Positions 41,303 to 42,691 of a DNA stretch of 64,000 bases are shown here, piece by piece; position 1 is the stretch's first letter; each line of letters starts with the position of its first letter. The notes under the pieces were generated by a model. It had not been told where the DNA came from, made no database searches, and saw nothing but the letters and a program-made list of their open reading frames with translations. Location: NCBI GenBank assembly GCA_913047395.1, contig CAJWUF010000001.1, positions 18,767 through 82,766 of the forward strand, written 5' to 3'. The stretch is from an uncultured cyanobacterium. GTDB taxonomy: Bacteria; Cyanobacteriota; Cyanobacteriia; PCC-6307; Cyanobiaceae. A program made the translations under genes and the position numbers.

Positions 41303-42691
41303 TCAGGCTGCAGCAACTCCCAATTTGTTTCGCCAACCGGGATAAAGAGCATCGGCGTCCTGTGGGAATGATTCAAAAGCGCGGGCAAACTCTCGGTGAT
41401 CGCAGGCCCAATCGATGGGGTCAGCTCCAGCAACCCAACACTCGTAGGCCTGGCGCAGTGAGATGGCACCGGCTGCCGGACTATCGAGGTGCCCGTAACT
41501 CCCGCCTCCTGCGGTATTGATCAGATTGCCATGACCCAGGTTGTTGAGAAATCCTGGCAGGCGCAGCGCGTTCATGCCGCCTGAGATTATTGGTGTTGTC
41601 GGCTTCATTCCAAGCCATTCCTGGTGGTAGGCCGGGCCGGTATAGCTATCGCGCTCGATGATGTAAGCAATGGCACGGTCGTCACGCTCACCCTCCATCT
41701 TGCCGTAGCCCATGGTGCCGACGTGAATACCGGAAGCACCCTGTAGCCGCGACATTTTGGCCAGCACGTAACCGGTGTAACCGCGCTTAGCGGAAGGCGA
41801 GGTGATCGCGCCGTGTCCGGCACGATGGTAATGCAAGTACTGATTAGGGAACCAGCGCCGGGCAGTGGTAACCATGCCTGGTCCACCGACATAACCGTCA
41901 ACTAGAAAGGCGCAATGTGTGGCGAACTCACCGAACTCTCCGAGGATATATTCGCCACGAGCAACCATCTCGTCGTGGGAATCCGCGGTGATATTGGCAG
42001 AGAACAATTTAGCGGTGCCAGTTTCATCCTGTGCGCGCCTCATGGCGTCTACCACTAAAGGGATGACCTCTTTCATTGGGGCAAAAGTCTGATTGCCTTG
42101 GGGCTCATCATTTTTGATGAAATCTCCACCCAACCAAAACTGATAGGCGGCCTCGGCAAACGGCTGTGGTCGCAAACCCAGTTTGGGCTTGATTATGGTG
42201 CCAGCGATGTAACCCCCATCAACGACCGGCCGGCCCAGGACACGCCATAGATCGGAAATATCCTTTGCCGGTCCATCGAACAATTGGACCGCTTTTGGTG
42301 GTACGAAAAAGTCGTACATCTTGGCGTGCTCGATATCTCCCATGCCCTGGTTATTGCCAATCGTCAGGGTCAAGAAAGATACGAGCATCATCTTGCCGTC
42401 GGTCATATTGCGGTCAAATAGTTCCAGTGGATAGGCGATGCGCATATCCTCGCTGGCTTCATCGATGCTGTAGACGATTGCATCGAAGCGTTTAGTGAAA
42501 TCGTCAGTGGTACAGACTTCTACGTTGGTACCGGTAGAGGATTCAGCGGCGAAGTGGGCGGCACCCTCAAGGTAGCCGGTGCCTGACTTGGGCTTCATCC
42601 GATAGGCACAGAGGATGTGTCGACCTTCATTGATGAGGGTCTGCTCATCGAGGTTGAGGTCGGCGTACCGACTGGATTGATTTAAAGCCAC
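41303..42691 (-). CDS. cbbM: ribulose-1,5-bisphosphate carboxylase/oxygenase, form II
   Basis: form II hallmarks [80 protein letters not shown] start with GGAG upstream; no small subunit nearby. Confidence 0.97.

Follow-up and report, generated by a model that had tools for sequence, protein, structure and literature searches.

The window, a stretch of 64,000 nucleotides of cyanobacterial DNA, carries an intact gene for a form II RuBisCO (cbbM). The explanation that best accounts for the data as a whole, to which we give a probability of about 0.72, is that a cbbM of Arenicellales-like gammaproteobacterial type now provides a minor second carboxylase of AMZ IB Prochlorococcus. Form I and form II RuBisCO have been reported together in AMZ IB Prochlorococcus [PMC11626144 (Jaffe et al., 2024, PNAS)]. 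Since that report of 2024 includes an enzyme assay, transcripts and peptides, form II RuBisCO in Prochlorococcus of oxygen-deficient zones (ODZ) is already known and the window is a re-discovery. The preliminary description of this DNA had correctly pointed to such a report; both the locus and the assayed protein are in it. The genome from which the window comes (G000) appears to fall in AMZ IB, judging from near-identical proteins and identical locus spacing. Among the titles and abstract openings returned by a literature search, there was no later work devoted to the AMZ IB form II enzyme.

The form II gene and its product

The cbbM gene (41303..42691, reverse strand) starts with GTG and encodes 462 residues. 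Its product contains both RuBisCO Pfam domains and scores 865 bits against the NCBIfam form II model PRK13475 (cut-off 489), whereas it stays below the cut-offs of the form I-type model [PRK04208, 238 bits vs 438] and of the form III model [TIGR03326, 225 bits vs 497]. The reading frame, the GTG start and the PRK13475 score all agree with the earlier claim of an intact form II gene of 462 aa. Among PDB entries the product matches 5c2c best, a form II enzyme (E = 3.8e-251). The active-site residues are as expected at 20/20 positions (Dataset S3 of PMC11626144), including the carbamylated lysine in KNDE, and all eight catalytic motifs named in the preliminary description (8/8) were found. Neither the ORF lists nor the family scans place a small-subunit gene next to cbbM, as had been stated. 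A form IV RuBisCO-like protein is ruled out; the NCBIfam models for such proteins give 95 bits (OiaX, cut-off 700) and 25-42 bits (MtnW) against 865 for form II, and the active site is intact.

At six positions (4, 72, 100, 258, 307 and 382) the protein departs from a residue that at least 90% of 197 homologs share, and two of these changes, D258T and A307G, occur in 0/197. From the alignment, the unusual substitutions are candidates for slow turnover. At positions 67-69, a further candidate, the protein has KRF, in contrast to KGV, RGV or LAV in the aligned relatives.

The overall GC content of the gene is unremarkable. GC is 55.1% for the whole of cbbM, 53.2% for ilvD and 50.5% for the genome. 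The 60-nt windows of cbbM range from 42 to 70% GC, with 26% of them at 60% or above (12% in ilvD). Among 682 ORFs of at least 300 aa, cbbM lies at the 88th percentile for GC and at the 98th for GC3 (60.3%), so that a modest third-position excess, and nothing more, remains. The contrast first drawn from two spots of 60% and 67% GC was therefore overstated, and GC contrast is rejected as evidence for transfer because the whole-gene GC is ordinary. Elsewhere in the window, GC falls to 39-49% over a long region, 12000-31000, that resembles a genomic island.

Linkage to the chromosome, and a separate form IA system

Contigs from several sequencing runs join cbbM to cyanobacterial DNA. All 30 bins of 38500-47000 are covered in 4/4 DNA runs from four studies; each of these runs carries a flag as a possible source of the assembly, and none of the listed pieces extends over the entire stretch. 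In run X4 a single 4374-bp contig extends from the 3' part of ilvD to past the cbbM start (38715-43088, 3 differences), run X11 has contigs over 39235-43088 and over 44759-45447, the latter reaching into pgl, and a contig of run X2 joins cbbM to sodC (40849-43886). Contigs from 45021 onwards also run into pgl. Two public contigs (L100 and L102) are 99.8 and 99.97% identical to 39562-43088, and the exact CbbM protein is recorded on 78 contigs. RNA-library contigs over cbbM occur in 4/4 runs from two studies, which indicates presence, not level or strand. No variants inside cbbM are listed in the four DNA runs, whereas sodC and the ferredoxin gene vary. In run X13, RNA contigs in ilvD and gnd (38500-39070 and 45781-46856) are 96-97% identical to the window, and hint at a diverged subpopulation; the cbbM contigs of the same run have no differences.

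An assembly chimera had been named as a possible source of error, and the check for it speaks for genuine linkage. The genome is in 151 contigs and the source waters also hold gammaproteobacteria with form II, which would favour a chimera or a binning contaminant. Contigs of four studies and two more public contigs nevertheless join cbbM to ilvD, the locus also occurs in a published MAG and the protein in published single-cell genomes. As carboxylation has been measured as well (PMC11626144), the probability that the gene is a chimera, a contaminant or a form IV protein is close to nil.

Another contig of the same genome, C7, carries csoS1-cbbL-cbbS-csoS2-csoSCA, the operon of a form IA carboxysome, and cbbM is on C1; the cell thus has both RuBisCO systems. 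The genome-wide search for cbbLS and carboxysome genes suggested earlier has in this way turned up the host's own form I enzyme.

Origin of cbbM

The proposal that cbbM was acquired horizontally is supported by its distribution, by a RuBisCO phylogeny and by the flanks. No form II match was found in 400 other genomes of the family (0/400 at E <= 1e-80); of 60 sampled relatives, 57 have weak matches only (30-38% identity) and three have none. In two complete genomes of the same genus (G002 and G003) both flanks are syntenic, at 81-84% nucleotide identity, and cbbM is absent. The closest proteins are 90-93% identical, several of them source-labelled Arenicellales or Acidiferrobacteraceae. A quick maximum-likelihood tree [IQ-TREE, no bootstrap; 86 rows, made up of 45 proteins and 41 of 80 genome loci] nests CbbM among proteobacterial form II enzymes, as had been expected. 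It lies inside a 32-row clade of 90-93% identical proteins (SH-aLRT 100), as sister (SH-aLRT 93) to a 14-row group that contains Arenicellales-labelled rows. The scan of the genome collection covered 16 of its 64 parts, and the nearest relatives are absent from its matches. Arenicellales are among the marine carriers of RuBisCO and make up a small part of the form II potential, according to the accessible part of PMC12168267. The terms 'Arenicell' and 'UBA868' are absent from the main text and spreadsheet of PMC11626144, the Fig. 1B labels of which may name the group; the relatedness to Arenicellales-labelled proteins is a small addition beyond that paper.

Similarity of the donor type is confined to the coding sequence (41302-42690; blastn against 80 proteobacterial loci). 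No relic of cbbR or cbbQO was detected in the flanks by six-frame tblastn against these 80 loci, which gave three hits, all with E >= 0.7. That only the coding sequence resembles the donor type, and that no relic of cbbR or cbbQ was seen beside it, is likewise a modest addition to PMC11626144. Carriage by phage found no support in one viral scan, which returned no relative. A common donor for sodC and cbbM is not supported; beyond close copies, SodC relatives reach at most 41% identity in a metagenome scan and 40-46% in other genomes of the family.

The variable segment around cbbM

The left core flank is ilvD (38035..39705, forward strand), which is in 81-82% nucleotide synteny with G002 and G003, followed by orf154 (39716..40180, reverse strand), a conserved hypothetical gene for 154 aa without a Pfam or NCBIfam family and the last syntenic gene on this side. 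The right core flank begins with pgl (45262..45993, reverse strand), then gnd and glgC. Between orf154 and pgl lies a mosaic variable segment of 5.1 kb (40181..45261) that contains cbbM. The earlier statement that cbbM is flanked by cyanobacterial core genes holds for ilvD, pgl, gnd and glgC (NCBIfam), but these are not its direct neighbours, the variable segment coming between. G002 and G003 carry different DNA there, some 1.4-1.7 kb long; in G002 it includes a CIA30 gene, and in G003 an ORF resembling it. A second small insertion, absent from that place in G002 and G003, is found at 36500-37660, with a 163-aa membrane-like ORF (36928-37419) outside any Pfam or NCBIfam family.

The left part of the segment encodes a small DUF4278 (IF17-like) protein of 57 aa (40722..40895, reverse strand; PF14105, 35.8 bits, cut-off 25.3) of a cyanobacterial type, preceded by a glutamine-II riboswitch (40917..40979, reverse strand; RF01704, 73 bits, gathering threshold 33). 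The riboswitch has a paralog at 23429-23490; the regions 40722-40994 and 23325-23509 are 80% identical over 192 bp. Pairing of this riboswitch with DUF4278 genes has been described before, in the part of PMC6212724 at hand. Directly before the riboswitch is a palindrome, GTA-N8-TAC (40981..40994), notable by its position alone, since a 5-kb sequence would contain about 1.2 matches of this kind by chance. It has the form of an NtcA-type box, the consensus of which is GTA-N8-TAC. A scan for promoters and terminators gave chance-level counts (5 vs 7.3 and 5 vs 4.1), and no promoter is claimed.

The right part begins with a relic of the 3' end of a TPR-repeat gene (43052..43161, reverse strand) that has an in-frame stop. 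It matches G001 and, at several sites, G002 with 75-82% nucleotide identity; two of the G002 sites are ends of TPR-like ORFs. Within the relic, at 43088, two haplotypes part. The form seen in the window continues to sodC (43342..43896, forward strand), a Cu/Zn superoxide dismutase gene, and to a [2Fe-2S] ferredoxin gene (44043..44396, reverse strand) identified by family scans. The second haplotype (contigs L099-L103, the junction being visible in four of the five) runs instead into about 2.3 kb of different DNA that opens with the 5' part of a CIA30 gene. In L100:3528-5850 this comprises the truncated CIA30 gene, a 133-aa ORF, alleles of sodC and of the ferredoxin gene that are 88.6% identical to the window's, and then DUF6364-like and DUF4079 genes. 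A loose end of the second haplotype at 43088 is seen in three of four DNA runs and two of four RNA runs. We infer that recombination has joined the cbbM block to more than one background on its right; the two right-half haplotypes of this 5-kb site add a little to what PMC11626144 reported. A separate 2.6-kb contig of the same genome bears a CIA30-like gene that is intact (G000:C145:1567-2145), has 81% identity to the second-haplotype fragment and adjoins a GC-rich ORF of 373 aa.

The sodC product has a lipoprotein-like leader (LLTAC) and the His/Asp motifs of the metal ligands. Codon 177 (43870-43872), before ACGVI, encodes Gln in the window and Arg in three aligned solved structures. From the alignment we take this position to be the counterpart of the substrate-guiding Arg143, which the available part of PMC3439438 describes as catalytically important. 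Among the 15 listed members of its 48-member cluster, eight have Gln and seven Arg, counts taken from the protein records, so that the allele with Gln177, probably weakened, is common. The codon is absent among the differences shown for the DNA and RNA runs. This Arg/Gln polymorphism is a further minor point beyond PMC11626144.

A near-identical block in a sister species

In the sister species G004, pgl-gnd-glgC is 90% identical to the window's. One of its contigs (L098, G004:C64:1-2371) matches 42796-44830 with a single difference and then diverges. The shared block, nearly letter-for-letter over 2 kb and itself a small extension of the published account (PMC11626144), includes about 290 bp of cbbM-proximal DNA, and the contig breaks off some 105 bp short of the cbbM start. 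The G004 assembly lacks everything from window position 38490 to 42796, the place of cbbM included, and no loose end near 42796 is listed in the four DNA runs. The 24 AMZ IA entries in the accessible part of PMC11626144, all of them MAGs, are without form II. It is conceivable, if unlikely, that form II is not confined to AMZ IB and crosses species lines among ODZ Prochlorococcus, as in a sister of the G004 type. The published absence in sister lineages would then be a binning artefact of the shared near-identical block, and cbbM by itself would be in the course of a sweep across several backgrounds.

Possible role of the second carboxylase

In the preferred reading, AMZ IB Prochlorococcus is likely to have received cbbM from a marine gammaproteobacterium of Arenicellales-like type. 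The enzyme would be cytosolic, outside the carboxysome, and would draw RuBP from the host's own Calvin-cycle enzymes with no dedicated CbbR or CbbQO. It is likely to be active in very dim, O2-free water, fixing ambient or carboxysome-leaked CO2, which may spare part of the cost of concentrating CO2. The fitness gain under low O2 is inferred, here as in PMC11626144.

The published measurements fit an active but slow enzyme. The AMZ IB protein #367 carboxylates in vitro with a converted kcat of 2.3 +/- 0.1 per s (PMC11626144); the raw rates given in the part of that source at hand are 1.2/s for #367 and 11.4/s for the Gallionella control. No CO2/O2 specificity value was found in the available text and methods of the same paper, nor any cultured strain. 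At the anoxic chlorophyll maximum, with about 0.01% of surface light, form II transcripts amount to 4-16% of those of form I. Form II is expressed almost exclusively at anoxic depths, at which form I expression also stays high, and ten form II peptides were detected (PMC11626144). Since the rate is low and the transcripts are only 4-16% of those of form I, the form II share of carbon fixation is probably small. Picocyanobacterial form IA enzymes turn over at about 6-7 per s. With this value, and if protein follows transcripts, form II would make up roughly 1-6% of capacity, which leaves room for two other explanations. Counting against the preferred one, CbbQ was not found in the 86%-complete genome (no CbbQ_C domain, and a CbbQ query from L012 was also unmatched), whereas a CbbQ-like ORF, recognized by a motif, is present at 33/80 proteobacterial cbbM loci within the locus DNA compared.

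Form II RuBisCO is known as an electron sink in photoheterotrophic purple bacteria. The Prochlorococcus enzyme could be active mainly as such a sink, a safety valve for RuBP under anoxia that contributes little net carbon; the low kcat and low transcript share are in line with this, as is expression at anoxic depths, where O2-dependent electron sinks presumably cannot run, and sodC and ferredoxin are redox neighbours. That cassette varies independently of cbbM, however, an electron surplus is not obvious at some 0.01% of surface light, and the highly expressed form I could itself act as a sink, so that we regard this role as unlikely while allowing it some weight. The gene could also be a nearly neutral passenger of a recombination hotspot, transferred too recently to have decayed. 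The site does gather relics and swap cassettes (the TPR relic, the truncated CIA30 gene, the two sodC haplotypes), six conserved residues are altered (D258T and A307G being unique against the 197 homologs), and neither an activase nor a regulator was found in the flanks, nor CbbQ genome-wide. Against a passenger, the frame and all active-site residues have stayed intact at a distance of 7-10% from the nearest relatives, cbbM shows zero listed variants in the four DNA runs in which sodC and ferredoxin vary, and one exact protein recurs on 78 contigs. Its transcripts are regulated with depth and its peptides are detected (PMC11626144), which makes a neutral passenger improbable.

Comparison with known systems

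The solved form II RuBisCOs (the group of 5c2c, 6ius, 4lf1 and 9rub) match CbbM over the full length (E = 3.8e-251 to 1e-220) and, like it, have no small subunit; the active site is the same. The host's own form IA RuBisCO on C7 catalyses the same reaction and shares the catalytic residues at about 30-34% identity to CbbM, but it is accompanied by genes for CbbS, CsoS2, carbonic anhydrase and the shell. The Arenicellales-labelled form II proteins (e.g. HCV21700.1 and HCY13757.1) are also of 462 aa, fall in the same clade and are 90-92% identical; the host of the window's gene differs in being an oxygenic phototroph that possesses a carboxysome. In the proteobacterial cbbR-cbbM-cbbQO cluster, cbbR and cbbQ/O stand beside cbbM, whereas the window locus has neither.

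The closest system is the published one of AMZ IB, in which cbbM lies beside a Cu/Zn SOD gene amid cyanobacterial core genes with no chaperone or regulator nearby, as in the window, and form I is on a separate scaffold, as in the window's genome (PMC11626144). The SodC copies differ, with Ser149 and Arg177 in the available part of the published data and Leu149 and Gln177 in the window, and the DUF4278 gene, present in the window, is missing from the accessible part of the Dataset S4 context table. The published protein #367 has 462 aa, as has the window's CbbM, and by eye the two are equal letter for letter over the 400 residues shown; V135 is common to both, and #342 differs there (16 of 35 places seen; PMC11626144). 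In the part of Dataset S4 at hand, the order ilvD-orf154-cbbM-sodC-fdx-pgl-gnd-glgC is that of the window, at a constant coordinate offset of 34313 (PMC11626144).
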